A stretch of DNA of 64,000 nt, from positions 8,208 to 72,207 of the forward strand of contig JAYVWC010000082.1 of NCBI GenBank assembly GCA_043786385.1. Reading direction: 5' to 3'. The notes beneath the pieces were generated by a model. The model did no database searches. It had not been told where the DNA came from and saw nothing but the letters and a program-made list of their open reading frames with translations. Below, in pieces: positions 11,716 through 30,903 of the stretch. The translations under genes were made by a program, and so were the position numbers. Within the stretch, counting starts at the first letter, position 1, and every line of letters begins with the position of its first letter. The stretch comes from Spongiibacteraceae bacterium (lineage in GTDB: Bacteria > Pseudomonadota > Gammaproteobacteria > Pseudomonadales > CAMLJR01).

Positions 11716-11741
11716 AAGGTCGGCTTTAGCCGGCCTTTTTT
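11716..11741 (+). terminator. Rho-independent terminator
   Basis: AAGGTCGGC-ttta-GCCGGCCTT followed by a T-run (TTTTTTAT). Confidence 0.75.
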
Positions 11742-11805: not shown

Positions 11806-11834
11806 GCGTCACGTAAATTTCACTTATTTGTCAT
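11806..11834 (+). promoter_or_regulatory. Pho-box-like array: three 7-bp direct repeats at 11-bp phasing
   Basis: The sequence reads GCGTCAC-gtaa-ATTTCAC-ttat-TTGTCAT. The PhoB half-site consensus is CTGTCAT with a 4-bp AT-rich spacer. The array lies ~190 nt upstream of tpsB. Confidence 0.35.
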
Positions 11835-12019: not shown

Positions 12020-13687
12020 ATGGTTTTTGCCCGGCATAAAAAAAACGCGTTACAGACCGTGTTCGGCTGGTTTCATTTCGTTCTGGCCTTATCGGCGTTG
12101 ATGCTTGTTTGTGCCGCTTTCGCGAACGCCGATGAGGCTGAAAACGCAGGCGCTAGGACGGCCGCCAGCGATGCGCCGACCGAATCTGCCGCGGTTGAAA
12201 AACGCTTCGATATTTGGGAGTACCGCGTCGAAGGCAACACGCTGTTGGATTCGAGGCAAATTGAGGCGGCGGTATATCCCTACCTGGGGCCGCAGCGTCA
12301 CATCGCGGACGTCAACGAAGCTGCGAGCAATCTCGAGCGCGCATTCAAAGAGGCGGGTTACCCGGTTATTTTCGTCGAAGTGCCGGAGCAGGATGTGTTG
12401 GGCGGCATCGTTACTTTGCGAGTTGTACAGGGCACTGTTGCGCGGGTGCGCGTCAGCGAGGCGCGTTATTTCATGCCGAGCGAGATTCGCGCCGGCTTGC
12501 CGTCGATTGCAACCGGTGCACCACTCCACGTGCCGAGTATGCAGCGCGATATGAACGCTTTGAATGCGCGGTCGTCGGATCTGAAAGTGGCGCCGATATT
12601 GAGTCCGGGAAAAACGCCGGGGAGCGTCGATGTCGAGTTGAAAGTGAAGGACAGCTCGCCGTTGCACGGCGGTATCGAGCTCAATAATTATCATTCGGCG
12701 GATACTTCGCCGACGCGGCTTGGCGTTAGTTTGAGTTACGACAATCTTTGGCAGGAACAGCATAGCCTGGCGTTGCAGTATCAAGTGGCGCCAGAGAATA
12801 CCGATGAAGTTAACGTGTGGGTTGCGACGTATATGTTGCCGCTGCAAGACAGCGACAAGCGCCTGGCATTTTATGCACTCGATTCGAAAAGCGATGTTGC
12901 CACGGTCGGCGTAAACAATGTTATCGGCACGGGCAGTATTTACGGTGCGCGGATGATTATGCCGCTGCAATCGTCGCGCCGTGCAATCCGTTCGTTGACG
13001 CTCGGTTTCGATTACAAGGATTTTCAGGAGATCATTCGTCTCGATCCGCAGACCAGCGACACAACACCGATCAGTTACGGCATGTGGTCCATGCAATACG
13101 CTGTGCTGTTGCCCAGCAGCGCGGCCAGCACCAGGCTCAGTATCGCCACCAATTTTGGTATTCGTGGCTTGGTCAACTCCGATTCCGAATTTGCGTTCAA
13201 ACGTTATAACGGCAAGCCGAACTTCGCGTACCTAAGCGCCAATTTAGATCGCGTCGATTATCTGGCTCACGATTGGCAAATACACAGCGCCGGCGAAGTG
13301 CAGATAGCGAACTCGCCGCTGGTCAACAACGAGCAGTTTTCGGCGGGCGGGCCGAGCTCGGTGCGCGGTTATTATCAATCGCAGCGGCTCGGCGATAACG
13401 GCTTGCGGCTAGGCGTGGAGATGCTAACGCCGTCGCTGTGGAGCCGCGGCCAGTGGCTCAGCGAAACCCGCTTGCTGGGATTTATCGAAGGGGCTCATCT
13501 CGAAGTCGTCGACGCGCTGCCGCAGCAGGACGAGAGTTTCGATCTGTTGGGCGCGGGGCTAGGTCTGCGACTGAAAAATCCATTGGGTTTCGACGTCAGT
13601 TTCGATTGGGGATATCCGCTGCAAGACAGCGGTGATGTGCAAAAGGGCGAAGCGCAATATTACGTCGGTTTGCAATACGCGTTCTAG
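12020..13687 (+). CDS. Two-partner secretion outer-membrane transporter (TpsB; ShlB/FhaC/HecB family)
   Basis: 555 aa with a signal sequence. It has the POTRA-type segment FDIWEYRVEGNTLL...IEAAVYPYLG and a beta-rich C-terminal barrel ending YYVGLQYAF (terminal Phe). It sits immediately upstream of a TPS-domain giant protein. Confidence 0.9.
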   Translation: MVFARHKKNALQTVFGWFHFVLALSALMLVCAAFANADEAENAGARTAASDAPTESAAVEKRFDIWEYRVEGNTLLDSRQIEAAVYPYLGPQRHIADVNEAASNLERAFKEAGYPVIFVEVPEQDVLGGIVTLRVVQGTVARVRVSEARYFMPSEIRAGLPSIATGAPLHVPSMQRDMNALNARSSDLKVAPILSPGKTPGSVDVELKVKDSSPLHGGIELNNYHSADTSPTRLGVSLSYDNLWQEQHSLALQYQVAPENTDEVNVWVATYMLPLQDSDKRLAFYALDSKSDVATVGVNNVIGTGSIYGARMIMPLQSSRRAIRSLTLGFDYKDFQEIIRLDPQTSDTTPISYGMWSMQYAVLLPSSAASTRLSIATNFGIRGLVNSDSEFAFKRYNGKPNFAYLSANLDRVDYLAHDWQIHSAGEVQIANSPLVNNEQFSAGGPSSVRGYYQSQRLGDNGLRLGVEMLTPSLWSRGQWLSETRLLGFIEGAHLEVVDALPQQDESFDLLGAGLGLRLKNPLGFDVSFDWGYPLQDSGDVQKGEAQYYVGLQYAF

Positions 13688-13698
13688 TTATCTGGGAA

Positions 13699-16600
13699 AT
13701 GGTCATGGCTTTGCTGATAAAAATTCGTAACTCACGCGGCAAAATCGGTGCAGCTTGGATCAGTTGCGCAGCTTTTACGTGGAGCGGTCTTAGCTTGCCA
13801 GCGTTCGCCGAGCTGCCGGTGCCGAGAGCCAATCTCAGCAGCGGTGGCGGCAACTATCAAGTCAGTAGCGGCGGGGCCGTCGGCACTATCAATCAAAAAA
13901 GCGAACGCGAAATTTTCAATTGGGAGAGCTTTAATGTCGGCGTCGGTAACGAAGTCGTATTCAAGCAGCCGAGCGCCAGCGCGGTGGCGCTCAACCGTAT
14001 TTTCGATAACGCGCCGAGCGCTATTCTCGGCAAGATCAGCGCCAACGGTTCGATCTATTTAATCAATCGCAACGGCATCGTGTTCGGCGACGGCATCCAC
14101 GGTGGGCAGGTCGATGTGAATGGTCGGTTCTTAGCGACTACGTTGAACATCAACGATACGCAGTTTTTGAACTCGAATTTATTTCAGGCCATCAACAATG
14201 GCGAGGCGGCGTTGGTTGGACATACCGACGATCAAGGTAATGCGCTAACCTCCGGCGCCGTCAAGATAGACAACGGCTTCACGATTAAAACCGGCGAGGG
14301 CGGCGATATTTTAATTTTCGCGCCCGAGGTGATGAATAAGGGCAATCTACTAACGCCGGGCGGCAACGCGGTGCTAGCGGCCAGCCACGATCGTGTATAT
14401 CTAACGGCAAATACCGCGGAGGAAACCGGCAGTAATTTAGGTGGCATTCTGGTTGAAGTCGATACCGGCGGCGATGTGAATAACCTCGGCAAAATTATCG
14501 CCGAGCGCGGTAGCGTGACCTTGCTGGGGCTCGCCGTAAATCAGAACGGTTTGATTCGCGCCACCACCACCGTCGATAACAATGGTGCAATTCGCCTGCT
14601 GGCGCGCGACAAAGCTACCCATGTCACCGCCAGTCAGGCGGAGTTCGCCGCACTGGGTTTCGATGGCCCTAAAGAGTTGCCCGCCAATCTGGCGCGCGCC
14701 AGTCGCACCGGCATTGTCACGATCGGTGCTGGTAGCACCACTGAGGTGTTACCCGATGCCGCAGTCACTAAGGTCGCTGATGCGCAACCGCAACAGCTAT
14801 CGCTGGTCGATGTTATGGGTAGCACCGTTGCCATCGAAGGCGCTGCCACTGTGCGCGCCACCGGCGGCGAGGTACGCATCAACGCCACTCAGTATCCCGC
14901 CACCCTGCAGGATATTCCTGGCAGCCAAAATGCCAGCCGCATGTATATCGATACGAGCGCGCTGATCGATGTATCCGGTACGCGCGATGTTGAGTTGCCA
15001 ATGTCGCGTAACGTCGTCGAGGCTGAACTTCGCGGTACTGAGTTAGCGGATGCGCCGCTGCAACGCAATGGTGTTTTGCGTGGCGAAACCGTCCTGGTCG
15101 ATGCGCGCAAGGGTACCAAGCTTGCCAATATCGAAGGTTATCTGGCGTTGAACGAGCGCACGGTCGGCGAACGTCTCGCCAAGGGCGGCACGATCAAGTT
15201 GCGTTCGGAAGGGGATTTAATCGTCAATCCAGGCGCCAAACTGGATATCTCTGGCGGCTCATTACGCTACCAGGCGGGCTGGTTGAAAACCACTAAGCTC
15301 CTTCAAAACGGCAAGGTGGTGGATATCTCGGACGCCGATCCCGATCAGCCGGTCGATGCGATTCTCGGTAAACGCTCGGTTACCGACGCGCGTTGGGGCG
15401 TCGCGAAGGAATTCGGTGCCGACAGTATTTTTAATATGGGTACCTACGTTGATTCGTTTACCGAAGGCACGGCCGCCGGCGCAATTACCATCAGTGCCAG
15501 CAGCACGGTATTTAATGGTGATATCGCCGCGCACGCGAGTAGCGGGCCGTATCAGCGCACACCCGACAAGCAGGTATTGGCCGGCAGTCTGTCGATCGAT
15601 ACGCGCGGTATCGCTCAGGATGTTGTCTTCACCCCGTTGCAGAGCAAGGCCCGTCTGAAGCTTGATGATCCTATCGCTGTGCTCGACGATTCCGGCCAAC
15701 TGCAGCCGCCGGTATTGGCAATCGCAGATGGCTTGGTGCGCGATAGCGGTCTGAGGCAGCTGAGTGTGACCACCAACGGCCGCGTCGTCCAACAGGCCGA
15801 TAGTCGCCTCGAATTGGCGGCCGGCAATAATAGCAAGCTGGCTGTGAGTGCCAGCGGCGTCGATATCGCCGGCCAGATTCGCGTCGCCGGCGGTACCATC
15901 GATCTGAAAACAAAATCGACGGCGTTCGTCAAGCCCATTCCGGACGATGACGAGACCAATTATGTATTAGCGGTGCGCAACGGTGCGCTGCTCGATGTAT
16001 CCGGTCTGTGGGTCAACGACAATCCGCTGCTGACACCAGACTTAACCACGCCGGTGGTCACCAATGGCGGCCATATCGCACTCGGCGCGCGCGGCGATGT
16101 CGATATCGAGGCCGGCAGCATACTGAACGCCGATGCCGGCGCTTACCGCGACAGCGCTTTGTCCTTTCGCGGCGGCGACGGTGGCACGATCGAACTTGCC
16201 AGCTACCGTCTCGGCGGCTCGGCGCTAACATTGACCGGCGATTATCACGCGTTCGGGTTTGGTGACAGCGGTAAGCTCGCGATCGAGGCCAACGGTATTT
16301 ATATCGGCAGCGATCGCCCAGCGACACTGCCGGCGACGACGTTGGCATTCGCGCCCGAATTTTTCGCCACGCAGGGCTTCGGCAGCTACGCGTTGACCGC
16401 CAATCTTTACGATGCCGAAATCGAGGCCGGCACTACGCTGCGGCTGCAACAGCGTAACTTTGCGCCTATCGGCGCCGGCGCGTTGGCTAGCGGCGACGTG
16501 GTCGATACGGGTTATCTCGGCCTGCTGCCGAGCGGCAGCTCGTTGAGTCTGATCGCGACTGTAGAGACCGTTGCAGCCGCGACCCGCAAGGCTGCCGATT

Positions 16601-19600
16601 TCAGTCTGAGCGCACTCCAGTCGGTGTTGGTGCCGGCGCTCGGGCAGACGATCAACGATCTGCCGATCGCGGAATTGCGGATCGGCAAAGGCGCGTTGAT
16701 CGCCGCAGACCCCGGTGCTGCGCTGGCGTTTAACGCCGGCCAGCGCATCGTTTTCGACGGTCGCATCGAGGCGCCCGGCGGTAGCGTAACCATGACGATT
16801 TCGCCGGACCAGGACGATGTCCGGCGGGGCTCCAGCCAGGGTATCTGGCTGCTCGACGAGGCTGCGATTTCGGTCGCGGCCGCCTTTGTCCCGCAGCAGA
16901 ATGAGCTCGGCACACTCGATGGCCGATTATTCGATGCCGGTTCGATTATGCTCGATGCGCGCGGCGGCTATGTGGTCGGCCAGACCGGCTCGCTGCTCGA
17001 CGTAAGCGGCGCGGCCCAGACGATCGACCGCGTGCAGACCAGCCCGCTGTTCGGCACTCGCATCGATTCGATCGAGCACGCCCTTGCCGCCGGCGCGATC
17101 GATATTCGCGCCGAGCAGGGGATTTTCTTCGATAGCACGTTGCGCACCGAGCGCGCTGCACTCGCCAATGCCGAGGGCGCGTCACTGGCGTTGCGCCTGA
17201 ATGCCAACGCCAGCGGGCGCAACTCGCCCGGCGGCTTCGATCTGGCGCTGCAACTGGTCGATGTCGCGCCCACGGTGACGGTCGGACCGCTGGACGGCAT
17301 CGCTGCTGCAGATCGCGGGCGCGCGGTGATCGGCGCGCAAAAAATTAACGCAGCGCAACTCGATACGCTCACGCTCGAAGTGCAGAACTGGATGAGTGTG
17401 GGGCCTAATACTCTACAGGCCTCCGGACGCCTACAGGTGCTCGACAATGTGCAATTACGCGCACAAAAAAGTATCGCGCTCGCCACTACCAATCTCGATC
17501 TGCAAGGGCGCGATTTGCAGGTGCAAGCGCCGTTTCTGCAGCTTGGTTTAGCCAATGCTGATGCGCGTCTGCAGCAAAGCGATAGCGGCGCGTTGGCACA
17601 GCTAGGGCAAAGCACGGGTCTGTTGGCATTGCAGGGCAAGCTGATCGATCTGGTCGGCAATCTAGCGGTCGGCGGGGCGCGACTCTTGAACCTGCAGGCT
17701 TGCGACGATATCCGCGCTCGCTCGGTGGCATCGTCAAACCCCAGTCAAATTCTGGCGCCGGCCACGTTAACCACCGATGCCGATATTCTGCTGCAGGCGC
17801 GGCAACTGTACCCGACCAGCCTAGCCGACTACCGTTTCGACAACAGCGCCGGCGGCGCTGCCGCCAGCCTCCGTATCGTCGGAGCGCCGGGCGAACGGCA
17901 GCCGGTATTGTCGGCCGGCGGCAAGCTGGGTTTCACCACCGGAATTTTTCGCAATGAGGGTGCGATTATGGCACCGCTCGGGCAGATTGCCATCGACGCT
18001 TCGCAACAAGCAACGCTCGCCGGCGGCAGCCTAACCAGCGTCTCCGCAGATGGTCTGACGATTCCGCTCGGGCGGGTTCTTGGCGGCGATCTGGACTGGA
18101 TCTACCCGCTTAATGGCCAGGCCAGTCTGACGATGCTGGCGGAGAAACGCGTCGAAATCGACGCACCGGCAGTCGCCCTCGAACAGGGCGCCGCTATCGA
18201 TATTTCCGGCGGCGGTAAGGTGTACGCCACGGAATTTACCCCGGGGCCGGGCGGCTCGAAAGATGTGTTAGCGACGGAAAATGCCGGCGCCGCGTTTGCC
18301 ATTATGCCGGCACTGAGCAGCGGCATCGCCGCGTACGATGCGCTGGAGATGCACGGCGTAGATTTAACCGCGGGCAATATAGTCACCTTGCGCGGGGTAC
18401 CTGGCCTCGCCGATGGCAACTACACGGTATTGCCGGCGCGTTACGCATTGCTGCCGGGCGCCTATCTAGTTACGCCGCGCAGCGACAGCAGCTACCTTGC
18501 ACCCGGCCAGGTACTGCCGCGCTTCGATGGCTCGTGGTTGGTGGCCGGCAAAATGGGCGTGGCCGGCACCGCGATTACCGATTCGAACTGGAGCGGCTTT
18601 GTGGTCGCGCCGCGCAGCAGCGTGATAACGCGCAGCGAATACACCATTGCCGATGCCGATACCTATTTCGCCACTAAAAGCCTGACGCCGAAAGATGCGG
18701 GCGCGGTATTGGTATCCGCCACCGACAGTCTGGAATTGGCCGGCACGATTGCCTCCGGCAGCAGCACTGGCCTAGGTGGCCGACTCGATATCAGCGCCGA
18801 TCGGCTTGCAGTGGTAGCGCAGACCGGTACCGAGACAGGCTTCATCGAGCTGCTCGATAGCGCGTTGCAAGGGCTCGGCGTCGACAGCCTGCTGCTCGGC
18901 GGCCGCCGCAGCGTCGAAGGTACCGACATGGTCATCGAGACCACCGCGCAGACAGTAAAAATGGGTGCCGGTGCTTCGCTGAGCGGGCCCGAGATCATTC
19001 TGGCCGCCACCGATTCGGTAACTCTGGCGCGCGATTCCACCCTGGCCGGCACCGGCCGCAAAACCCAACAAGCGGAGGCGTTAAGTGTCGGGCGCGACGG
19101 CGCGCTGGTGCGCGTATCGTCGAGCAGGCAAACCGATTTTACGCGCACCGCTGCGACCGGTGCCACGCCGGGCGAATTGCAAATCGAGCAGGGCGCAACG
19201 CTGCGCGCCGATGCCGCGGTATTGCTCGATGCCAGCGGTTCGGCGGGTTTTGCCGGCAATCTCGATCTGCGCGGTGGCTCGCTGTCGCTGAATGCGGGTC
19301 GCATTGCACTCGGCGGGGATACCGCGATCGACGATGCCTTGCATTTTTCCGGCGCCACGCTGGCCGCGCTCGATATAGACGAGTTGCGTATCAATAGCCG
19401 CAGCACCATCGATTTCTACGGTGCTGTAGACATCGGTTTGCAACGGCTGGAGCTGGCGGGGCAGAGCTTTCGCAATCGCGCCGGAGCGGCGATCGATGTG
19501 TTGTTCAAAGTGGCCGCGCAGGCCACCGTAAAAGGTGTCGATAGTACGGCGAGTACGGCGGCGGGGGCGCCGGGTGGCACCTTCTCGATCGCTGCCGGCG

Positions 19601-22600: not shown

Positions 22601-24000
22601 TGGCCGATCACAGCCAAATCGGCGCCGGTCGCGATGTCAGTTATCGCTGCGAGAGCTGCAACGATCGCGGCGTTACCATCGCCGGCCCCGGCGTGCTCGA
22701 AGTATCCGCAGGCCGCGACATTGACCTCGGCGCTGCCGGCGGCATCGTGTCGATCGGCGATCGCGATAATCCGGCGTTATCATCCGAGGGCGCCGATATC
22801 CGCTTGTTGGCTGGCATCAATTCGGCGCCTGCCTATGCCGCTTTCGAGGCAAAATATTTACAGGCACCGGAGCAATTCCCGCAGCAGTTCGCGCATTTCC
22901 TATATTGGTCGGCACCCGATGCAGTGGTCTATGACCTGTTACAGACGCAAACCGGGCAGACCTACAACAATCGCGACGCCGCAATCGTAGCGCTACAACA
23001 ATTGCCGCGTAGCGCTGTATTGACGATGGCAAAACAGGCCTATGCGCAATCGTCGGCGCTGGTGCAGCGCGATCTGATAACCGCTGTTTATCTGCAGGAA
23101 ATACAGCGCGGCGGTGTCGAAGACGTGCAGGGTCAGCGAAGCGATGGCAACGGTTTCGCGCGCAGCTATGCGGTCATTGACACTTTGTTCCCCGGTGAGT
23201 TGTGGAAAGGCGATCTCAGCCTGGTGTTCAGCACGGTGCAGACGCAGCGCGGCGGCAATATCGATTTATTGATGCCGGGCGGCGGCATCGATGTGGGACT
23301 GGCGGGCACGTTCGCCGGCACTACCAAGGAGAGTGGTCAGCTCGGCATTATGGCGCAGTCGTTCGGCAGCGTGCGCGCTGTGGTCAAGAACGATATCAAC
23401 ATTAATGCCTCGCGGATATTTGCGCTCGATGCCGGCGATATTCTGCTGTGGTCGTCGGAGCAGGATGTCGACGCCGGCAAAGGCGCAAAAACCTCGCTGA
23501 CTATTCCGCCGCCGCGGCGGGTATTAAATCCCGACACCGGTCAATTCGAAACCGAGCTGCCGGCTGCGTTATCGGGCAGCGGCATTCAGTCTGGCGATAA
23601 CAAACTGACGTCGACTCCCGCGCGTTTTGCCAAATTGACGGTCGGCGCTGCCGATGCGCCGCTGCTGTTTGCGACTGTATCGGCCGCCGGCGCCAGCTAT
23701 TTGTTCGCACCGAAAGGAATAATCGATGCCGGGGATGCCGGTATTACTTCGCAGGGCGACTTATTTCTCGGCGCGCAGCAGGTGTTGGGTGCGGACAACA
23801 TCGATTTTGGGGGGGTTGCGATCGGTATTCCGGTTAGTAGCAATACCGGCGCGGCGCTCGCAGGCGTCGGCGATGTAGCCAACTCCGCAACGGAAAGCGC
23901 GACCAACTCGATGAACTCCGCATTGGCCGAAACCACCACTGCCCTTGCTGAAGGCAATGTCGCGTTTGTGACGGTGGACATATTGGGTGTGGGTAAATAA
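13699..24000 (+). CDS. Giant filamentous-haemagglutinin-family exoprotein (TpsA), 3433 aa
   Basis: The N-terminal TPS (haemagglutination activity) domain reads FNWESFNVGVGNEVVFKQPSASAVALNRIF...SAILGKISANGSIYLINRNGIVFG, where NRNG replaces the NPNG motif. A long Gly/Ala/Asp-rich beta-helix-type repeat body follows. The C-terminal conserved region is GNIDLLMPGGGIDVG...GDILLWSSEQDVDAGKGAKT. No VENN/CdiA-CT boundary was seen. Confidence 0.92.
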   Translation: MVMALLIKIRNSRGKIGAAWISCAAFTWSGLSLPAFAELPVPRANLSSGGGNYQVSSGGAVGTINQKSEREIFNWESFNVGVGNEVVFKQPSASAVALNRIFDNAPSAILGKISANGSIYLINRNGIVFGDGIHGGQVDVNGRFLATTLNINDTQFLNSNLFQAINNGEAALVGHTDDQGNALTSGAVKIDNGFTIKTGEGGDILIFAPEVMNKGNLLTPGGNAVLAASHDRVYLTANTAEETGSNLGGILVEVDTGGDVNNLGKIIAERGSVTLLGLAVNQNGLIRATTTVDNNGAIRLLARDKATHVTASQAEFAALGFDGPKELPANLARASRTGIVTIGAGSTTEVLPDAAVTKVADAQPQQLSLVDVMGSTVAIEGAATVRATGGEVRINATQYPATLQDIPGSQNASRMYIDTSALIDVSGTRDVELPMSRNVVEAELRGTELADAPLQRNGVLRGETVLVDARKGTKLANIEGYLALNERTVGERLAKGGTIKLRSEGDLIVNPGAKLDISGGSLRYQAGWLKTTKLLQNGKVVDISDADPDQPVDAILGKRSVTDARWGVAKEFGADSIFNMGTYVDSFTEGTAAGAITISASSTVFNGDIAAHASSGPYQRTPDKQVLAGSLSIDTRGIAQDVVFTPLQSKARLKLDDPIAVLDDSGQLQPPVLAIADGLVRDSGLRQLSVTTNGRVVQQADSRLELAAGNNSKLAVSASGVDIAGQIRVAGGTIDLKTKSTAFVKPIPDDDETNYVLAVRNGALLDVSGLWVNDNPLLTPDLTTPVVTNGGHIALGARGDVDIEAGSILNADAGAYRDSALSFRGGDGGTIELASYRLGGSALTLTGDYHAFGFGDSGKLAIEANGIYIGSDRPATLPATTLAFAPEFFATQGFGSYALTANLYDAEIEAGTTLRLQQRNFAPIGAGALASGDVVDTGYLGLLPSGSSLSLIATVETVAAATRKAADFSLSALQSVLVPALGQTINDLPIAELRIGKGALIAADPGAALAFNAGQRIVFDGRIEAPGGSVTMTISPDQDDVRRGSSQGIWLLDEAAISVAAAFVPQQNELGTLDGRLFDAGSIMLDARGGYVVGQTGSLLDVSGAAQTIDRVQTSPLFGTRIDSIEHALAAGAIDIRAEQGIFFDSTLRTERAALANAEGASLALRLNANASGRNSPGGFDLALQLVDVAPTVTVGPLDGIAAADRGRAVIGAQKINAAQLDTLTLEVQNWMSVGPNTLQASGRLQVLDNVQLRAQKSIALATTNLDLQGRDLQVQAPFLQLGLANADARLQQSDSGALAQLGQSTGLLALQGKLIDLVGNLAVGGARLLNLQACDDIRARSVASSNPSQILAPATLTTDADILLQARQLYPTSLADYRFDNSAGGAAASLRIVGAPGERQPVLSAGGKLGFTTGIFRNEGAIMAPLGQIAIDASQQATLAGGSLTSVSADGLTIPLGRVLGGDLDWIYPLNGQASLTMLAEKRVEIDAPAVALEQGAAIDISGGGKVYATEFTPGPGGSKDVLATENAGAAFAIMPALSSGIAAYDALEMHGVDLTAGNIVTLRGVPGLADGNYTVLPARYALLPGAYLVTPRSDSSYLAPGQVLPRFDGSWLVAGKMGVAGTAITDSNWSGFVVAPRSSVITRSEYTIADADTYFATKSLTPKDAGAVLVSATDSLELAGTIASGSSTGLGGRLDISADRLAVVAQTGTETGFIELLDSALQGLGVDSLLLGGRRSVEGTDMVIETTAQTVKMGAGASLSGPEIILAATDSVTLARDSTLAGTGRKTQQAEALSVGRDGALVRVSSSRQTDFTRTAATGATPGELQIEQGATLRADAAVLLDASGSAGFAGNLDLRGGSLSLNAGRIALGGDTAIDDALHFSGATLAALDIDELRINSRSTIDFYGAVDIGLQRLELAGQSFRNRAGAAIDVLFKVAAQATVKGVDSTASTAAGAPGGTFSIAAGELVLGDAKQTATLAVDSFAQTNLSGSGRIVGRGDLTLNSGGDLSLDTPLLTLGGAGKLTADAAGIMTVRNSAGSAQNSALDFAGALALSGEQVIIDTQLRVPAGRIDLIARTDDVELRSGTLLDTSGVTLRFGETIVASADGGVVNLNAQQGDVRTAVGARIDVSATSIGSAGALNIAATQGAVNLLGSIDAAAGAGGSGGAFALDTLALDDSSALFGLLRAAGFTESIDIRQRSGDLNVAADDSIDSERVRLRTDNGNLSIAGAITALGEKASVLLAAGQNLLLDASASLRIGAGGANHRGELMLSALSGQIDARTGSSVDLSATDAAAENGRLTLLTTRTANDVAITNFDSSLRGVGRIDLVASKDYSALGGDSVLNAADMAAINSDTDSYFTANEASIKNRLTNLSATSGFHLQAGAVVKPAGDLTITGPIDLSTYRYGVNKEAGHLMISASGDLTLNGELSDGLVAGTTTADTVIRAQSGAVESKIVQTGESWSLSLAAGSDSASSWYGDTVTGVGDVSLAANSRLRTGTGAIEIFAGDDLVLAAQTSVIYTVGRADYVLSEGATSSAPLTLQPDTGVLSPIDLYRNVLPNRVAYAEQGGDISIDVGGDIDAANSNQLFTDWLQRAQGTLNDIVYNTWAVASARFQQGVATLGGGNIDVHARGTISNLSVSTPTTGKQLGSLTQPQSLEQAIEINGGGDIDVRAGGDINSLRLLVDRGTARVNAEGDIGAWRSVDGSAVGFETLVAIGAAEASFRAGGDIAFAGAFNQTMLAQSILQNKGLAVAENRKSYFFTYSEQAALNAQSRGGNVSFATEADSTAFAAAFPNLQLASNSATAKSALQMLPPVLNLEALQGDIEFADDRLTLYPSARGNLRLVAGGDIVNSGANPFTLRQSDADPSLLPTALRPVARLGTLSAALIDDVFSKLFNPLHENLLTHAAQPLHAGDAAHSVIAAGGDIGADASAGSAALTFELAQQTLIDAGNDVANTTFYLQHNNLADHSQIGAGRDVSYRCESCNDRGVTIAGPGVLEVSAGRDIDLGAAGGIVSIGDRDNPALSSEGADIRLLAGINSAPAYAAFEAKYLQAPEQFPQQFAHFLYWSAPDAVVYDLLQTQTGQTYNNRDAAIVALQQLPRSAVLTMAKQAYAQSSALVQRDLITAVYLQEIQRGGVEDVQGQRSDGNGFARSYAVIDTLFPGELWKGDLSLVFSTVQTQRGGNIDLLMPGGGIDVGLAGTFAGTTKESGQLGIMAQSFGSVRAVVKNDININASRIFALDAGDILLWSSEQDVDAGKGAKTSLTIPPPRRVLNPDTGQFETELPAALSGSGIQSGDNKLTSTPARFAKLTVGAADAPLLFATVSAAGASYLFAPKGIIDAGDAGITSQGDLFLGAQQVLGADNIDFGGVAIGIPVSSNTGAALAGVGDVANSATESATNSMNSALAETTTALAEGNVAFVTVDILGVGK

Positions 24001-24072
24001 AGAGCCGGCGTGGGTAAATAAATTTTTGTAAACCGGTGACTTTTTACTGGTGGTTTCTTACAGGTGAGAAAG

Positions 24073-25881
24073 ATGCGCAAATTATTTTTTGTATTACTGC
24101 TGATGGTATCGAGTTTATCGCACGCGTGGTGGAACGATAAGTGGCCGAATCGATTGCCGATAACGGTCGATACCTCTGCTGCCGGTGCCGGGGTCAGCGA
24201 AAATAATAGCGATGTTACCGTGCTGGTGAAATTGCACGCCGGCAATTTTCAGGATTTCTTTTCTGTAAAAGAAGATTTATCCGATCTGCGTTTTATCGGC
24301 GACGATGATAAAACGCCGCTGAAATTTCACGTCGAAAATTTTGATTTGGTGAATCAACTGCTGTACGTGTGGGTGAAAGTGCCGCAGGTAGCTGGCGGCA
24401 TCAACACCGCTCGCCTGTGGATGTACTACGGCAATGCCGAGGTGCCTGGAGCCCAGGATAGTGGCGGCAGCTACGATAACAATACCGCGTTGGTGTACCA
24501 CTTTAACGCCGGTGAAAAAATTCCGCAGGATGCCGGCGTAAATGGCAATCACGCGACCTCGGCCAGCGCCTCAGTGATCGGCGCGGCGATTGCTTCGGGC
24601 TTGAAATTCGAGAGCGGTAATGTCGTATCGATCGACGATAAACCTACGCTGGCGGTGAAGGCCGCGCAGGGTGCGACGATCAGCTTTTGGCTGAAGCCTA
24701 CCAAACTGGAAGGTAATACCTGGTTGTTGCAGCGCAGCGGCGGCAACAGTGAGCTGGTTATCGGTCTCGAACAAAATAATTTGTACGCGCGTTTAAAGCT
24801 CGCGAATGGCCAATTGGTGGAAACCAATAAATCGCCGAGCGTTCGCGCGGATGCCTGGCAATTGGTCACCGCGATTATCGCGCCGAATAGATTGACGTTA
24901 CTCGTCGACGGTAAAGAAGTGGCGACAGCGGCCATTCAGTTGCAGGATTTCGGCGGCGCGATTACGTTGGGCGATGGTGCCCAAGGCGGTCATCCGTTTG
25001 TCGGCGAACTCGATGAGTTCCGGATCGATACGGTGGCGCGCAGCCCGAGCTGGGTGGCTTTGCAAATCAACAATCAAGGTATTCAAGACAAACTGTTGAG
25101 TGTACAAGAGGCCGAACAGTTAGGGTCTGGCGGTAAAGAATCTGGCTTCTGGTCAGTGATCATCGGCAGCCAGGATGAGGTTGGCTGGGCCATTCTAGGC
25201 GTGCTGATGATAATGGCCGTGATCAGTTGGATCGTGATGGGCGGCAAGGCGATTTATGTCGGTCGTGTACAAAAAGATAACAAGCACTTCCTCGATCAAT
25301 ACCGCGAGCTCGGCGATCAAGACCCGGCGCAGTTGGATCGCGACGATACCGCTGAAGATAAAGAGTTGGAAAAGTCGCCGATCACGCAAGCGCTGTTTGG
25401 TAATCATGATCACTTCCAAAGCTCGCCGATTTATCGTGTTTATCATCGCGCGGTGAAGGAAACGCAGGCGCGCTTGGGTAATTCGGTAGGCGCGCGGGCC
25501 AGCGGCTTATCCAATGCGGCAATCGCGTCGATTCGCGCGACGCTCGATACGCAAATGGTGTTTGAAATGCAGCGTCTCAATTCGCAGATGGTGTTGCTAA
25601 CGATCGCGGTTGCGGGCGGACCATTCATCGGTCTGTTCGGCACTGTGGTCGGCGTGATGATCGTATTCGCGGCGATTGCCGCTTCGGGGGATGTCAATAT
25701 CAACGCAATCGCTCCGGGTGTAGCGGCAGCGCTGGCGGCCACCGTGATGGGGCTGTTGGTCGCGATCCCAGCATTGTTTGGTTACAACTATTTAATGTCG
25801 AAAATAAAAGCGACGACCGCCGATATGCGTGTATTTGCCGATGAGTTTGTCACACGGCTTGCTGAATATTACGGGAAATAA
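24073..25881 (+). CDS. MotA/TolQ/ExbB proton-channel protein with an N-terminal periplasmic DUF2341 + LamG-like (concanavalin-type) extension
   Basis: Signal peptide MRKLFFVLLLMVSSLSHA, then WWNDKWPNRLPITVDTS (DUF2341-type). A LamG-like stretch follows (ISFWLKPTKLEGNTWLLQRSG...LLVDGKEV...FVGELDEFRIDTVARS). TM helices and the ExbB core are GGPFIGLFGTVVGVMIVFAAIA...AAALAATVMGLLVAIPALFGYNYL. The ATG at 24073 was preferred over the GTG at 24064. Confidence 0.85.
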   Translation: MRKLFFVLLLMVSSLSHAWWNDKWPNRLPITVDTSAAGAGVSENNSDVTVLVKLHAGNFQDFFSVKEDLSDLRFIGDDDKTPLKFHVENFDLVNQLLYVWVKVPQVAGGINTARLWMYYGNAEVPGAQDSGGSYDNNTALVYHFNAGEKIPQDAGVNGNHATSASASVIGAAIASGLKFESGNVVSIDDKPTLAVKAAQGATISFWLKPTKLEGNTWLLQRSGGNSELVIGLEQNNLYARLKLANGQLVETNKSPSVRADAWQLVTAIIAPNRLTLLVDGKEVATAAIQLQDFGGAITLGDGAQGGHPFVGELDEFRIDTVARSPSWVALQINNQGIQDKLLSVQEAEQLGSGGKESGFWSVIIGSQDEVGWAILGVLMIMAVISWIVMGGKAIYVGRVQKDNKHFLDQYRELGDQDPAQLDRDDTAEDKELEKSPITQALFGNHDHFQSSPIYRVYHRAVKETQARLGNSVGARASGLSNAAIASIRATLDTQMVFEMQRLNSQMVLLTIAVAGGPFIGLFGTVVGVMIVFAAIAASGDVNINAIAPGVAAALAATVMGLLVAIPALFGYNYLMSKIKATTADMRVFADEFVTRLAEYYGK

Positions 25882-25886
25882 ACCTA

Positions 25887-26291
25887 ATGAACGTATCCGA
25901 CGACGACAAGGTTTTTGATGACATCAACGTAACGCCGATGCTCGATTTGGCGTATGTATTGTTAATCATTTTTATTATTTTAACGACGGCAACGGTGCAG
26001 GGCATCAAAGTCAATCTACCGAAAGCGAGCAACGCGCCGAGCTTAAACAAACCGCAGACGAAGGCGGTTACGGTTACGCCGGACGGCACCATTTATCTCG
26101 ATGCGTATCCGGTCAGTCTCGATCAGTTGGAATCGCTGCTGCGGCAATACAAAGCAGTTAACCCCGATTTACCGGTGGTGGTGAAAGCTGATTCGCAGGT
26201 GCAGTACCAGCGGGTCGTCGATGTACTGGATGTATTGGGGCGCGTCGAAATCACCCAGCTCGGTTTGGTGACGCAGAAGGCAGCGAAGTGA
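25887..26291 (+). CDS. exbD: ExbD/TolR family biopolymer transport protein
   Basis: 134 aa with INVTPMLDLAYVLLIIFIILT and a periplasmic domain (VVVKADSQVQYQRVVDVLDVLG). The gap from the exbB-like gene is 5 nt. Confidence 0.9.
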   Translation: MNVSDDDKVFDDINVTPMLDLAYVLLIIFIILTTATVQGIKVNLPKASNAPSLNKPQTKAVTVTPDGTIYLDAYPVSLDQLESLLRQYKAVNPDLPVVVKADSQVQYQRVVDVLDVLGRVEITQLGLVTQKAAK

Positions 26292-26370
26292 ACAGTCGCG
26301 AAATTATCCTCGGTCAAAATTATCCACGGCAAAACGAGTGCGGCGAAAATAAATTGCCATCGTCACTATT

Positions 26371-26399
26371 TTGTCATCACTTTGTTAAATAATTGTCTG
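26371..26399 (+). promoter_or_regulatory. Second Pho-box-like array: three direct repeats at 11-bp phasing
   Basis: The sequence reads TTGTCAT-cact-TTGTTAA-ataa-TTGTCTG in the 137-nt gap between exbD and the tonB-like gene. A -10-like GACAAT/TAACAAT lies downstream. Confidence 0.35.
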
Positions 26400-26428
26400 A
26401 CAATCAATCACCCTAACAATCGGTTCTC

Positions 26429-27055
26429 ATGTCGAAAAAATGGTTAAAAAGGCTGCCTGCTGCGCTGATCGTTTTGGTGATCGTGGTGGCAATTGTCGGC
26501 GTTGTGTACTTAAAAAATCACTTTCATAAGGACGAGACGCAAAAGAAAAAAATGGTGCAGCAGATCACGATGCTGAAGCTGCCGCCACCACCTCCGCCAC
26601 CGCCTCCGCAAGAGCAGATCAAGGAGCCGGAGATAAAGGATGAGCCGATTAAAGAAGAGACCGAAGCGCCGCCCGCTGAGTCTGCTGAAGATAGCCCTGC
26701 ACCAGAGGCAGCCGAAGGCGCAGGAGTTGGCAACGATGGTTTCGGTCTGGGAAAAAATACCGGACGCGGTTGGGGTGCCGGCACCGGCGGCGCTTACGAG
26801 CAGCATGTGCGCCAAGAAATCAACGAATTTATTTTGGGAAACGAGCGGCTAAAACACATGGATTACATCGCCGTGCTGACGTTAAAAATCGGCGAGAGTG
26901 GCGAATTTGAGCAGTACGACGTCGAAATTGTTAGCGGCGATAAAGTGGCCGCCGAGTTGATTCGTAAAATATTGGCCGATAAACGAAAACTGGCAAAGCC
27001 GCGCCCGTTAGAAGCGGCGAGCGTGGTGAAGTTAAGAATTAAATCGGTTTTATAA
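26429..27055 (+). CDS. TonB-like energy transducer (N-terminal TM anchor, Pro-rich spacer, C-terminal domain)
   Basis: TM segment LPAALIVLVIVVAIVGVVYL. Spacer LPPPPPPPPPQEQIKEPEIKDEPIKEE. A ~90-aa C-terminal globular domain follows. The gene sits directly after exbB/exbD homologues. Confidence 0.7.
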   Translation: MSKKWLKRLPAALIVLVIVVAIVGVVYLKNHFHKDETQKKKMVQQITMLKLPPPPPPPPPQEQIKEPEIKDEPIKEETEAPPAESAEDSPAPEAAEGAGVGNDGFGLGKNTGRGWGAGTGGAYEQHVRQEINEFILGNERLKHMDYIAVLTLKIGESGEFEQYDVEIVSGDKVAAELIRKILADKRKLAKPRPLEAASVVKLRIKSVL

Positions 27056-27070
27056 AATTATTTTTTGTCT

Positions 27071-28735
27071 ATGAGAAAAACGATGAATTATCGATTGAGA
27101 AAAGCCATGCTGGTCGCCTTATTAGGAGTTACATCGATTGCGCATGGAGAAAACGCGGCATTGGGCGATGTCACTGCGCAAGATTTGCTGAAATTACTGG
27201 TCGACGAAGGCGTGATCGACAAAAATAAATTAAAAGCGTTAACCGAAAAAATTCAAGAGCGCAAAAAAACAGCGGCTGGGGCGGCGGTCGATAGCGTTGC
27301 AGAGACACAGCGCGATGTGAAGCCCGCTGCCGAGGGTCAAGTGATCCGCGTGCCGTACGTGCCGGCATATATCAAAGATGAAATTCGCGATGAGGTGCGC
27401 ATCGGTTTGAAAGAGGATGTGTCGCGCGATGTATTGGCGCAGGCCAAACAAGAGCGCTGGGGATTGCCGGGCGCACTGCCGGAGTGGATCGACACAATTC
27501 AATTCTACGGCGATGCCCGACTGCGTTATCAGGGCGATATGTTCGCGGAGGGCAACAGCGAAAGTCTATACCTCGACATCAATGAAGTGAATGCCGTCGG
27601 TGATATCGATAAATTAACCGATTCTGCATTTATCAATACTACCGAGGATCGCGAGCGGATGCGCGTGCGGATGCGGCTCGGGATGAAGGCAAAAATCAGC
27701 AATTCGGTCGAGGCCGGTTTGCGTTTAGTCACCGGCAATGGCAACGATCCAGTGAGCACCAATCAAACGTTGGGCAACTACGGTGAGAAGTATCAATCAA
27801 CATTCGATCTCGCGTATCTAAGCTATAAAAATCAGACGCGCAGTGTGCAGCTCGCGGGTGGCAGAATCAAAAATCCATTTTTCAGCACCGATTTAGTGTG
27901 GGACAACGATCTGACCTTCGAAGGCGTCGCGGGCAGTTGGCATTGGCTGCGCAGCGACGGTATGGACGAGCAGTTCCGGCAGGCCGACCCCTACATTACG
28001 GTGGGCGTTTTTCCGCTTGGCGAGGTGGAGAAATCCAGCGACGACAAATGGCTTTACGCTGCGCAGTTCGGCTTGGATTACGCATTTACGGATCAATCTA
28101 AACTTGAGCTGGGCGCGGCGTATTATCACTACGCCAATGTGGCCGGTGTTAGGAACGAACCGAATAGCAATCTTACCGATTACACCGCGCCCGATTACCT
28201 GCAGAAAGGCAATAGCCTGTTCAATATCCGCAACGATTTGGCCAATACCAGTCTTGTGTTGCTAGGGTTGTTGCCGGATTACCATCTCGCCAACGTCACG
28301 GCCGGCTACGATTTGGCGACGCTGGCGCCGCATCACATATTTTTGACTGCGGATTACGTCAAAAATATCGGCTTCGATCAGGATGAAATCGTTGCGCGGC
28401 GCGGCTCGCCAATCGATGAAGAAATCACCGGTTGGATGGTGCGCGCAGCTGTGGGCTGGCCGGTGGTGGCGCAGCGCGGCAATTGGCTGGCTGCGTTATC
28501 GTATCGTTATCTGGAACGCGATGCGGTGCTGGATGCCTTTACCGATTCGGACTTCCATCTCGGCGGTACCGATGCTAAAGGTTACGTGCTCGAGTTTCAA
28601 TACGGTCTCGACGAGGATATTTGGTTAACCACGAAATGGATGAGTTCCGACGAGATCGAGGGCGATCTGATCGGCGGCGGCGGGGGGCCGTTCGGCATCG
28701 ACACTCTGCAGCTCGATATCAATGCGAAATTTTAA
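27071..28735 (+). CDS. Porin-like outer-membrane beta-barrel protein (putative porin family)
   Basis: Signal peptide MLVALLGVTSIAHG. The N-terminal helical segment is DLLKLLVDEGVIDKNKLKALTEKIQERKK. A long region of alternating aromatic and Gly beta-strand pattern follows. The C-terminus is LQLDINAKF (terminal Phe). Confidence 0.6.
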   Translation: MRKTMNYRLRKAMLVALLGVTSIAHGENAALGDVTAQDLLKLLVDEGVIDKNKLKALTEKIQERKKTAAGAAVDSVAETQRDVKPAAEGQVIRVPYVPAYIKDEIRDEVRIGLKEDVSRDVLAQAKQERWGLPGALPEWIDTIQFYGDARLRYQGDMFAEGNSESLYLDINEVNAVGDIDKLTDSAFINTTEDRERMRVRMRLGMKAKISNSVEAGLRLVTGNGNDPVSTNQTLGNYGEKYQSTFDLAYLSYKNQTRSVQLAGGRIKNPFFSTDLVWDNDLTFEGVAGSWHWLRSDGMDEQFRQADPYITVGVFPLGEVEKSSDDKWLYAAQFGLDYAFTDQSKLELGAAYYHYANVAGVRNEPNSNLTDYTAPDYLQKGNSLFNIRNDLANTSLVLLGLLPDYHLANVTAGYDLATLAPHHIFLTADYVKNIGFDQDEIVARRGSPIDEEITGWMVRAAVGWPVVAQRGNWLAALSYRYLERDAVLDAFTDSDFHLGGTDAKGYVLEFQYGLDEDIWLTTKWMSSDEIEGDLIGGGGGPFGIDTLQLDINAKF

Positions 28736-28745
28736 GGGGTCGCGC

Positions 28746-29414
28746 ATGTTGAGCAAACATCGTTATAAAGGCTTCTCGATCGCATGGTTGTTGGCCAATT
28801 TGCTCGCTGTGAATGGTTTTGCGATAAACAACGCAGCCGCGCAGGATACCAATGCCAATGCACAAAAAAATGCGTTGGCGAAAGCGCAATATATGCTGCG
28901 TCAGGCGACTAGCGAAAAATCTGAAGCACAACAGCAAGCCGAGACGCTAAAGAAACAGATCGATACGCTGACTAAGGAGTTGGCCACGGTGAAATCCGCC
29001 GCTAGCGAAAATAAGCAAAAAATGGAAGAGAAATTCAGCGGTACCATCGAGCAATGGAAACAGCACGATGAAAAGGCCGGTGGTCAATTGACGACGTTAC
29101 GTACGCAATTGAAGGAGCAAACCCAGCTTCGTGCGCAGCTGGAGGAAAAACTTAAAATTCAAACCGATAATTTTTCAATGTGCTACGGCAATAATAAACA
29201 ATTGCTCGATGTTAATCGCGAGTTGCTCGATCGCTATCAGCACAAGGGCGTGCTCGATGCGGTCAGTCAGAAGGAGCCGTTCACCGGTCTTAAAGAAGTC
29301 GAAATAGAAAATCTGGTGCAGGATTATCGCTATCGGATCGATGATTTAAGTGTTGCTGCACCTGCTGCGGAAAAGGTTCCGGTTGCCGGTCAGCAATCGC
29401 CAGCAGTTGAGTAG
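28746..29414 (+). CDS. Secreted coiled-coil protein
   Basis: ATG at 28746 follows an AAGGGG Shine-Dalgarno. Signal sequence FSIAWLLANLLAVNGFA. It has heptad-like Q/E/K-rich stretches (QQQAETLKKQIDTLTKELATVKSAASENKQKMEEKF...LRTQLKEQTQLRAQLEEKLK). Confidence 0.6.
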   Translation: MLSKHRYKGFSIAWLLANLLAVNGFAINNAAAQDTNANAQKNALAKAQYMLRQATSEKSEAQQQAETLKKQIDTLTKELATVKSAASENKQKMEEKFSGTIEQWKQHDEKAGGQLTTLRTQLKEQTQLRAQLEEKLKIQTDNFSMCYGNNKQLLDVNRELLDRYQHKGVLDAVSQKEPFTGLKEVEIENLVQDYRYRIDDLSVAAPAAEKVPVAGQQSPAVE

Positions 29415-29493
29415 TAGGCAGATGCGATGGAGCAGCACTGAAGCACAGAATTGAGTTAAATAAAAAATCTGGATCAAGGTCAAGGGGTGAGCG

Positions 29494-30009
29494 ATGGCGA
29501 TCAAGAAAAATATTTCGGTGCGGTTGGGTGTCGCGGATCTGCGGCGCGTTAAGGAAATTGCATTGCGGCTCGACGTCAAAGAGTCGGAAATTTTTCGTTA
29601 CGCCGTCAAAGCGTTATCGACGCGGTTGATGCCGCTGTTAAATCGCCAATTGAGTGGAGTGCCGATGTTAGTTGCACTGCTCGAAAGCGGCGAGGAGATG
29701 CTCGGCTATTTTGAATTCGATGTACCACATTTGGAGCGTTTGATAAATGGCAGTATCGATCACCTCGCCGTGGTCGAGCACGAGGATATCGAAATGTTGG
29801 CGATCGGTATTATCAATCCCGATTATTTGGCGGCGCGCATTTCTGAAAAATTAAATGCCAGTATCGAGCCTGCGCTGGCGTTCGATGCATTGCAAAATTA
29901 TCTATTCCGTAAATATCAAGTGCGCGCGTATGCGGCGGTGGTCGGTAGCGCAGCCGATAACAGCAGCGATGGTATTAGCAGCATGAGCATGCAGGCCGTG
30001 CCGGCCTGA
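29494..30009 (+). CDS. Hypothetical protein (weak ribbon-helix-helix-like N-terminus)
   Basis: 171-aa ORF preceded by AAGGGGTGAG. The N-terminus is KKNISVRLGVADLRRVKEIALRLDVKESEIFRYAVK. No family was recognised. Confidence 0.45.
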   Translation: MAIKKNISVRLGVADLRRVKEIALRLDVKESEIFRYAVKALSTRLMPLLNRQLSGVPMLVALLESGEEMLGYFEFDVPHLERLINGSIDHLAVVEHEDIEMLAIGIINPDYLAARISEKLNASIEPALAFDALQNYLFRKYQVRAYAAVVGSAADNSSDGISSMSMQAVPA

Positions 30010-30847: not shown

Positions 30848-30903
30848 GACAGGGGTCGAAGCGCGCACCATTCTAACGCTGGCCACCCCGACTGAGAAGG
30901 GAA

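Follow-up and report, generated by a model that had tools for sequence, protein, structure and literature searches.

What a two-partner secretion (TPS) pair has to do with a private Ton-like motor and an outer-membrane protein (OMP) encoded directly behind it is the question raised by a gene block of a Spongiibacteraceae bacterium (contig JAYVWC010000082.1, positions 8,208 to 72,207; this whole stretch of 64,000 nucleotides is called the window, and all coordinates below are counted from its first letter). According to the list of open reading frames (ORFs), eight genes on the same strand span 12020-30009 (+) between two terminator-like sites. We show that the block is a conserved proteobacterial cassette composed of a TPS pair, a private stator, a TonB/TolA-like transducer, a stalked plug-less barrel of the Porin_5 family and a secreted coiled-coil protein. 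A preliminary description of the locus, made from the sequence alone, had proposed that motor and TPS pair are functionally coupled in a machine driven by the proton motive force (PMF) and dedicated to the exoprotein.

Every ORF was found at the position given in that description, and the same gene set came out when genes were called independently on a public contig of 100% identity, with lengths of 3431 aa for TpsA, 602 aa for ExbB, 134 aa for ExbD, 208 aa for the TonB-like protein, 550 aa for the Porin_5 protein, 222 aa for the coiled-coil protein and 171 aa for the last ORF. Domains were assigned by Pfam and NCBIfam searches of the window proteins, which upheld the earlier calls of ShlB and POTRA_2, the TPS domain, the combination of DUF2341, LamG and MotA_ExbB, ExbD and Porin_5, with TonB_2 as a weak match. 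The genes are tightly packed: tpsB and tpsA are separated by 11 nt, tpsA and exbB by 63 nt with a GTG start at 24064 or 72 nt with an ATG at 24073, exbB and exbD by 5 nt, exbD and the tonB-like gene by 137 nt, and the latter and the OMP gene by 9 nt (TTG 27065), 15 nt (ATG 27071) or 27 nt (ATG 27083). The OMP and coiled-coil genes overlap by 14 nt, or lie 10 nt apart when the ATG at 28746 is used, and 79 nt follow before the 171-aa ORF. With the ATG starts at 24073, 27071 and 28746 the gap lengths first reported are recovered. The 5' boundary of the block is marked by a terminator-like hairpin that closes the upstream gene for a protein resembling a periplasmic binding protein (PBP) (11716-11737, +; 9-bp stem with 6 G-C pairs, then a T-run), and its 3' end by another (29992-30008, +; 7-bp stem with 6 G-C pairs, T-rich tail after it). 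Terminator and promoter consensus scans of the window gave no enrichment over shuffles, and therefore only the location of the two hairpins carries meaning. The flanking genes are ordinary chromosomal genes. The G+C content is 0.60-0.63 over most of tpsA (16000-24000) versus 0.51-0.52 in the motor-porin genes (24000-30000) and 0.53-0.56 in the flanks, a step that may be an effect of the Gly/Ala-rich fibre or may record separate histories of the two halves.

The linkage was followed across species through the porin. A scan of one genome per species gave at least 573 species with a relative of this protein, from alpha-, beta- and gammaproteobacteria; the best 80 loci, from 80 species, were taken and each was scored by tblastn with every window protein, the denominators below being the judgeable loci. 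This set includes Spongiibacteraceae, Methylococcales, Thiobacillus, Steroidobacteraceae, Rhodoferax, Hydrogenophaga, Thiohalobacter and many metagenome-assembled genomes (MAGs). An ExbB with the N-terminal fusion, together with ExbD, precedes the porin in 57 of 59 loci, and between exbD and the porin gene 61 of 62 loci have a TonB-like ORF with a transmembrane (TM) helix, a poly-Pro stretch and a conserved C-terminus. The coiled-coil gene lies downstream of the porin in at least 63 of 70 loci, and TPS genes lie upstream in 47 of 52, in most of which tpsA ends 40-350 nt before exbB. Two gene orders occur, tpsB-tpsA-exbB as in the window and tpsA-tpsB-exbB. Because it recurs in dozens of species, the arrangement is far beyond chance. 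In the remaining five of the 52 loci the motor-porin-coiled-coil unit follows unrelated genes and has no TPS gene closer than 10 kb, and in the reverse test of six contexts of the DUF3739 C-terminus of TpsA the module was found downstream in three and was clearly absent in one, two contexts being incomplete. From the motor linkage and the five loci without TPS genes it follows that motor, porin and coiled-coil protein form the invariant core and that the TPS pair is a very frequent, non-obligatory neighbour. Thus the adjacency of TPS pair and motor is not peculiar to this genome, and these counts do not bear out a machine dedicated to the exoprotein, since the motor-porin core is the tighter unit, occurs without a nearby TPS pair, and DUF3739-type TpsA proteins also occur without the module.

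Several loci carry additional genes. In three Thiobacillus loci (L029:5480-7009, L035 and L076) a protein of about 510 aa with a choice-of-anchor I domain and a PEP-CTERM tail is encoded between tpsA and the exbB fusion, and six beta-proteobacterial loci have an ankyrin-repeat protein gene between the porin and coiled-coil genes. Two MAGs labelled Verrucomicrobiaceae (L002) and Candidatus Methylomirabilis (L031) encode porins with 56% and 44% identity to that of the window along with other cassette genes, which suggests either lateral transfer or binning contamination.

The preliminary description had named a phosphate-regulated parallel in Pseudomonas aeruginosa, pdtA/pdtB next to exbB2-exbD2, and this was right. 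There, pdtA (PA0690), phdA, pdtB, exbB2, exbD2, tonB4 and PA0696-PA0701 are controlled by sigma-VreI and PhoB, phdA to PA0701 forming one transcript from the phdA promoter and pdtA having a separate promoter (PMC4971064). PA0696 is a putative porin, PA0697 a signal-peptide protein, PA0698 a YbjN protein and PA0699 a peptidyl-prolyl isomerase (PPIase) (PMC7035377). The control by PhoB and VreI was shown experimentally (PMC4971064, PMC7035377, PMC9769906), and at low phosphate PdtA, PA0696 and PA0698 are among the most induced proteins, with their function unknown (PMC9769906); PdtA is also placed under "unknown function" in a 2017 review of TPS systems (PMC5422565). Llamas et al. described in 2009 that homologues of the TPS genes, exbBD and PA0696 travel together in Pseudomonas, Burkholderia, Rhodopseudomonas and Janthinobacterium (PMC2729926). 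The operon and its conservation across genera have accordingly been in print since then, and the window is a new member of a mechanistically uncharacterised cassette.

We connected the window with P. aeruginosa through annotated bridge replicons and the published PAO1 gene order. An IncFIB plasmid of Klebsiella quasipneumoniae encodes an FHA-family TpsA, TpsB, a 612-aa MotA/TolQ/ExbB protein, ExbD, TonB, a putative porin, a hypothetical protein, YbjN, PPIase, another hypothetical protein and LysR, which is the published order of PA0690-PA0701. The window is collinear with this plasmid in tblastn, with identities of 34% for the porin, 31% for the N-terminal fusion and 45% for the C-terminal part of ExbB, 52% for ExbD, 37% for TpsB and 32% for the TpsA C-terminus; a Burkholderia arboris chromid is likewise collinear, at similar identity values. 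A plasmid of the alphaproteobacterium Methylosinus has the core with a VreA/VreI/VreR-like trio and tpsA in the last position, and on a Cupriavidus plasmid the annotated core lies beside a type II secretion system (T2SS) and a secreted nuclease. The collinearity with replicons in the published order makes the window a member of the pdt/exbB2-type cassette family. It shares with the P. aeruginosa operon the protein families, the core order (TpsA/TpsB, ExbB, ExbD, TonB-like protein, putative porin, signal-peptide protein) and, as its Pho-box-like arrays suggest, the link to phosphate starvation, and in both the motor and downstream genes are uncharacterised. It differs in having tpsB ahead of tpsA, a ribbon-helix-helix (RHH)-like 171-aa ORF and a second Pho-box array inside the operon, and in lacking phdA, the Hxc T2SS, and the YbjN (PA0698), PPIase (PA0699), LysR and adjacent VreAIR genes that are found in the Klebsiella, Methylosinus and Cupriavidus versions.

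The complete TpsA-to-LysR cassette of K. quasipneumoniae (NZ_CP084804, L088, 113774-147369) is located on a conjugative plasmid, beside IS26, IS3 and an ars operon. A K. pneumoniae plasmid (NZ_CP065459, H7) belongs with the plasmid-borne cases, and an IncN plasmid of Leclercia (NZ_CP040895, L091) keeps a truncated porin remnant among insertion sequence elements. Such settings on plasmids and among insertion sequences indicate that the cassette is horizontally mobile and present in clinical Enterobacteriaceae.

Phosphate control was analysed by scoring phased triplets of [CT]TGTCA[TC] heptamers with an 11-nt period (maximum 21). In the window, a Pho-box-like array of three heptamers lies 186 nt upstream of tpsB (11806-11834, +; score 17/21, one of the four top sites of the window), and one of four phased heptamers, whose scores of 18 and 17 out of 21 are the highest in the window, lies in the 137-nt exbD-tonB spacer (26292-26428), about 30 nt before the tonB-like gene (26360-26399, +). 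The latter is followed by a -10-like hexamer, TAACAAT, so that the tonB-porin-coiled-coil-orf171 part could be transcribed on its own, and the spacer array is a probable internal PhoB-dependent promoter. The two closest relatives (L001, L002) have the same array ahead of tonB; in most other loci this spacer is missing. On both strands of the window four Pho-box-like sites were found with about three expected, a count that by itself is not above chance; three of the four lie on the coding strand in the two large spacers of the block, which total 506 nt. Among the 80 related loci, 60 of 87 coding-strand matches are intergenic, intergenic DNA making up 10.7% of the sequence, and of 201 co-directional intergenic segments 26 had arrays on the coding strand, 38 in total; the opposite strand had 4 and shuffled sequence 0.9 ± 1. 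The intergenic matches of the 80 loci lie upstream of exbB (10 loci), of tonB in the closest relatives, of the orf171 family (8 of 16 loci) and of some Wza-like genes near cassettes. The distribution of these sequence motifs strongly indicates that transcription of the block is PhoB-dependent, from promoters upstream of tpsB and internally before tonB. Together with the experiments in Pseudomonas, the arrays of the related loci make control by phosphate starvation the best-supported property of the cassette, for this organism as a prediction from consensus matches.

The individual components were then compared with known systems. The first two genes encode a two-partner (type Vb) secretion pair, as judged from the POTRA domain, the ShlB barrel with its VRGY motif, the TPS domain and their adjacency. 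TpsB (12020-13687, +; 555 aa) is an Omp85-type transporter matching ShlB (E=2e-20), POTRA_2 (E=5e-17) and Omp85, in which a signal peptide and the L6 motif (SSVRGYY) can be read. The exoprotein TpsA (13699-24000, +; 3433 aa) has an N-terminal TPS domain (71.5 bits versus a Pfam cutoff of 33.5) similar to those of EtpA, HxuA and HMW1, a long Gly/Ala-rich body presumed to be a beta-helix, and a C-terminal DUF3739. A structure model of its last 384 aa (mean predicted local distance difference test value, pLDDT, 76) shows a helical bundle, a beta-helix corresponding to DUF3739 and a disordered tail of about 55 aa, which is conserved and ends in VxVxGxG. A fold search with this model returned no significant match and no enzyme or toxin fold, and no VENN-type motif was found in TpsA. 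Contact-dependent inhibition (CdiBAI) was considered as the identity of the pair and rejected, as there is neither VENN motif nor toxin fold nor immunity gene and tpsA is followed by exbB.

The next three genes encode the motor. The ExbB/TolQ-like stator subunit (24064-25881, +; 605 aa, or 602 aa from the ATG at 24073) has a signal peptide, an N-terminal DUF2341 and Laminin_G_3 region of about 340 aa and MotA_ExbB; the N-terminal domain is periplasmic, because it is placed after the signal peptide and before the first TM helix. A search of the PDB with this domain gave no informative solved relative, DUF2341 appendages of such stators are entered in a 2025 survey as having no known function (PMC12505986), and a literature search for DUF2341 with ExbB found no functional study. 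The 134-aa ExbD/TolR-like subunit (25887-26291, +; Pfam ExbD, NCBIfam) carries the transmembrane Asp (TPMLDLAYVLL), and the 208-aa TonB/TolA-like transducer (26429-27055, +) consists of an N-terminal TM helix, a poly-Pro tract and a C-terminal TonB_2-type domain. Of 40 orthologues of the transducer, 38 match TonB_2 (best E=9e-12), 10 TonB_C and 5 TolA (TolA_C); the family profile gave weak TonB matches in the PDB (E about 0.1), and the window protein also has a weak GltJ-like match in NCBIfam. MotA_ExbB, an ExbD with TM Asp and a TM-anchored Pro-rich TonB_2 transducer are features shared with the Ton system. In contrast to known Ton systems, the OMP of the window is not a TonB-dependent transporter (TBDT), the ExbB carries the periplasmic LamG/DUF2341 domain, the transducer lacks the TM His and the stator scores nearer to TolQR: the best NCBIfam match of the ExbB fusion is TolQ, with 131 bits (cutoff 221) versus 65 bits for ExbB, and that of ExbD is TolR, with 91 bits against a cutoff of 127 and above the ExbD model, all of them under their cutoffs. 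A Zorya/MotAB-like anti-phage system was rejected as well, for PADLOC gave no match for stator, transducer or porin, and coiled-coil noise only for the 230-aa protein.

The OMP (27065-28735, +) matches Porin_5 over its full length (E=5e-164) and comprises a signal peptide, a helical hairpin, a stalk helix and a barrel of about 16 strands. In its AlphaFold2 model (mean pLDDT 86) helices are formed by residues 38-47, 53-70 and 101-130 and about 16 strands by residues 145 to 555, with no plug. Foldseek ranked the stalked trimeric porin OmpM1 of Veillonella first in the PDB (E=8e-17), ahead of MOMP, the OmpF/OmpC/PhoE group, AlgE and OprB; the PDB fold matches listed include no TBDT, and neither TonB_dep_Rec nor Plug was matched in Pfam searches. 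Hence a canonical TonB-dependent receptor with 22 strands, plug and TonB box is ruled out by Pfam, structure model and fold search, and the preliminary description was correct in seeing no receptor-type plug. With an adjacency that recurs in other species and an OMP that is no canonical receptor, the proposed functional coupling survives the computational refutation tests set for it. OmpM1 of Veillonella parvula (PDB 8bys) likewise has a barrel of about 16 strands after an N-terminal helical periplasmic stalk; it differs in its peptidoglycan-binding SLH domain and in having no motor partner, and its identity to the window porin is about 15%. No peptidoglycan-binding domain was found at the N-terminus of the window porin, where the extension belongs to the Porin_5 Pfam model proper. 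Databases contain more than 3,300 relatives of the Porin_5 protein, and a literature search for Porin_5 (PF16930) found no functional study.

Two features of the porin stand out in the alignments. Its N-terminus holds a conserved helical hairpin (residues ~38-70) and a conserved disordered motif, VIRVPYVPAYIKDEIRD, at residues ~92-108; two motifs there, TxxDLLxLLVxEGV and VRVPYVPxYIKDEIRD, are kept even at 33-37% overall identity, and the start of the second is modelled at low confidence (pLDDT ~55). A conserved and disordered VRVPYVP start would be the signature of a docking peptide, for which the TonB box and the TolA-binding N-terminus of TolB are parallels. Furthermore, nine arginines are 91-100% conserved, R152 and R154 in strand 1, R196, R198, R200, R202 and R204 in strand 2, R220 in strand 3 and R267 in strand 5, and K210 of strand 2 is K in 81% and K or R in about 86%. 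In strand 2 the arginines alternate with hydrophobic residues, a pattern suggesting that the conserved arginines line one wall of the lumen. OprP has a lumenal arginine ladder, which the stripe recalls; like OprP/OprO and PhoE, the latter among the fold matches, the window protein appears to be a Pho-regulated porin-fold barrel. OprP/OprO belong to the Porin_O_P family, in contrast to Porin_5 here, and OprP is passive, whereas the window porin comes with a stalk and motor genes.

The porin gene is followed by that of a secreted coiled-coil protein (28722-29414, +; 222 aa from the ATG at 28746) with a signal peptide and no Pfam family. It is homologous to the gene in the PA0697 slot of Pseudomonas-type cassettes (hhalign 99.5%, E=3e-22), and both have the conserved C-terminal module C..N..KLY..N.ELL..Y..EPFTGLK.VE.ENL.

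Neighbouring genes give a further hint at function. In a related locus PhoX adjoins the cassette, the Cupriavidus cassette has the secreted nuclease with T2SS, and upstream of the block in the window lies the gene for a 553-aa secreted PBP-like protein (9989-11650). The latter had been labelled PstS-like, which can hardly be upheld: its match to PBP_like_2 is borderline (27.5 bits versus a cutoff of 27, over only ~100 residues) and it has no PDB relative. Weak homologues of it (25-31% identity) lie beside the cassette in two other loci (L004, L032). Phosphatase, nuclease with T2SS and the weakly PBP-like protein point to phosphorus scavenging.

Putting these data together, we tentatively propose that the motor gates an anion channel for the import of a phosphorus source that the fibre makes available; we rate this reading somewhat short of an even chance. 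The proton-driven TolQR/ExbBD-like stator would energise the TonB-like protein, whose C-terminal domain would dock by strand addition on the disordered VRVPYVP segment at the periplasmic end of the porin stalk and pull. The pull on the stalk would open or activate the channel, lined by the ladder of about nine conserved arginines, and this channel would let in an anionic phosphorus compound, for instance a phosphate ester, polyphosphate or a fragment of nucleic acid, which the TpsA fibre would capture or expose outside the cell. For the LamG crown and the coiled-coil protein, a part as scaffold or spacer in the periplasm is possible. The logic would be that of HxuA/HxuB/HxuC, except that a porin-type gate replaces the TBDT and a dedicated motor the housekeeping TonB. 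HxuCBA is the described case of cooperation between TPS and Ton systems (PMC5422565, PMC4873976). In this Haemophilus influenzae system a TPS pair is likewise encoded with an energy-dependent OM importer of a scarce nutrient, which the TpsA protein, whose TPS domain resembles that of the window, frees outside the cell. HxuC, however, is a 22-strand plugged TBDT served by the housekeeping TonB, in contrast to the porin-like OMP of about 16 strands with its own motor, and the nutrient signal is iron there and phosphate in the cassette.

Arginine stripe, Pho boxes and phosphatase and nuclease neighbours favour import, which came second among the options raised in the preliminary description. Several points weigh against the gated channel. 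The block encodes neither a periplasmic binding protein nor an importer of the inner membrane; phosphate porins such as OprP work passively, and dependence on TonB or TolA is, to our knowledge, not on record for any 16-strand porin. TonB and TolA have a TM histidine, which is absent (SHLS motif) from the window transducer and the 40 aligned orthologues, and the window transducer scores 20.7 bits against TonB_2, under the cutoff of 22. That the arginines face the lumen and that the N-terminal motif serves for docking is read from sequence pattern and pLDDT, and the Pho boxes of the window are consensus matches. The LamG domain and the coiled-coil protein are left without a role by this proposal and its rivals alike, and a simple co-regulated uptake system would not call for linkage to a 3400-aa fibre as strong as the 90% seen here. 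Moreover, transposon mutants in tonB4 and PA0696 of P. aeruginosa showed wild-type virulence in zebrafish, phosphorus uptake being outside that assay (PMC2729926).

The strong linkage to the fibre would be explained if the motor acted on TpsA itself. The TonB-like protein or the LamG crown could grip the disordered tail of TpsA while it is still periplasmic, and the PMF would drive, arrest, retract or tension the fibre, with porin and coiled-coil protein as an outer-membrane platform. The short distance between tpsA and exbB in most loci, the high frequency of TPS genes (47/52), a conserved VxVxGxG end suited to strand addition and a TpsA free of enzyme or toxin domains hinting at another role agree with this, as does the weak GltJ-like match of the TonB-like protein, for in the Myxococcus Agl-Glt system a motor is coupled to a surface adhesin. 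Nevertheless we consider the explanation unlikely: the module occurs without a nearby TPS pair in five loci and DUF3739 TpsA genes without the module, the arginine-lined channel would have no role, and it is established that TPS secretion proceeds without envelope energy (PMC5422565). The five loci in which the motor-porin unit stands alone would suit a second Tol-Pal-like system for phosphate-starved cells, in which the outer membrane would be tethered or remodelled during phospholipid replacement by a TolQRA-like motor together with an OmpM1-like stalked porin and a coiled-coil protein of CpoB type, and TpsA would be merely co-regulated. The stator indeed scores higher with TolQ/TolR than with ExbB/ExbD models, the transducer is of the TolA/TonB clan with TolA_C matched by five orthologues, the closest fold of the OMP is the outer-membrane-tethering porin OmpM1 and the periplasmic coiled-coil partner recalls CpoB. 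Still, the TolQ/TolR scores are far under the curated equivalog cutoffs, the block encodes no TolB or Pal homologue and the porin N-terminus has no peptidoglycan-binding domain, and the arginine stripe and the 90% linkage to the TPS pair of this Pho-linked module would be left unexplained, which makes such a system very unlikely.

Least probable of these explanations, in our judgement, is a role in the matrix, with the LamG lectin-like crown and the porin handling an anionic exopolysaccharide or anchoring PEP-CTERM surface proteins and TpsA as a matrix fibre. Such a role is suggested by genes downstream of 12-16 of the 80 loci (2-10 kb downstream of the porin in L005, L010, L014, L020, L021, L026, L041, L073 and others) whose best matches are an XrtA/PEP-CTERM export protein, a chain-length determinant, a tyrosine autokinase, an ATPase and PrsT, by PEP-CTERM or VPLPA tails in 14 of the 80 loci, by a VPLPA-CTERM protein upstream of the block in the window (9044-9895, NCBIfam) and by AlgE and OprB among the porin fold matches. 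These neighbours, however, are confined to a minority of loci and all score below the NCBIfam cutoffs, Pseudomonas-type cassettes are without them, and no exosortase or exopolysaccharide export gene lies next to the block in the window.

Some further genes in and around the block deserve mention. A DUF4114 protein is encoded just upstream of the block in the window as well; the VPLPA-CTERM protein and the DUF4114 protein are listed at 9044-9895 and 7363-7950. The last gene of the block (29494-30009, +) encodes a cytoplasmic 171-aa protein of no Pfam family with an RHH-like N-terminus of the pattern NISVRLxxxDLRRIKxIAxRLGVKESDxFRF; its match to RHH_1 (E=0.07) is not significant, and it has no convincing PDB relative. 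It represents an undescribed family found in 16 related loci (e.g. L004:14760-15293, L026:9162-9659), and it is within 3 kb of the porin in only 10 of 65 loci, so that it can no longer be counted as a conserved member of the block. The Pho-box-like arrays ahead of this ORF in half of the loci that have it make it possibly a Pho-regulated DNA-binding protein, and we regard it as a lineage-specific accessory, possibly a regulator. It was rejected as the counterpart of YbjN (PA0698), given the lack of a Pfam match, the sub-threshold RHH similarity, the lack of a PDB relative and the few loci. Beyond the block, a listed 452-aa ORF (30011-31369, -) is, according to the gene call on the public contig, likely a 273-aa protein with a lipoprotein-like signal (LAACAST); its gene is convergent to the block and abuts its terminator, and it has no family match.

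The cassette is widespread, as the number of species-level genomes with a porin relative and its presence on conjugative Klebsiella plasmids show, and in P. aeruginosa its proteins are among those most strongly induced in phosphate starvation and infection, while motor, porin and coiled-coil protein have had no role assigned. Gating of a plug-less porin by a TonB/TolA-like motor, or action of such a motor on a TPS fibre, would, if real, be a new use of the PMF at the outer membrane. A motor acting on TpsA would overturn the energy-independent view of TPS and define a new class of motor-coupled surface fibre, and a gated porin would be the first TonB/TolA-dependent porin-type gate without a plug. 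A "hypothetical operon" of 15 years' standing now has specific targets: the docking motif of the porin, its arginine ladder, the TpsA tail and two putative PhoB-type promoters.

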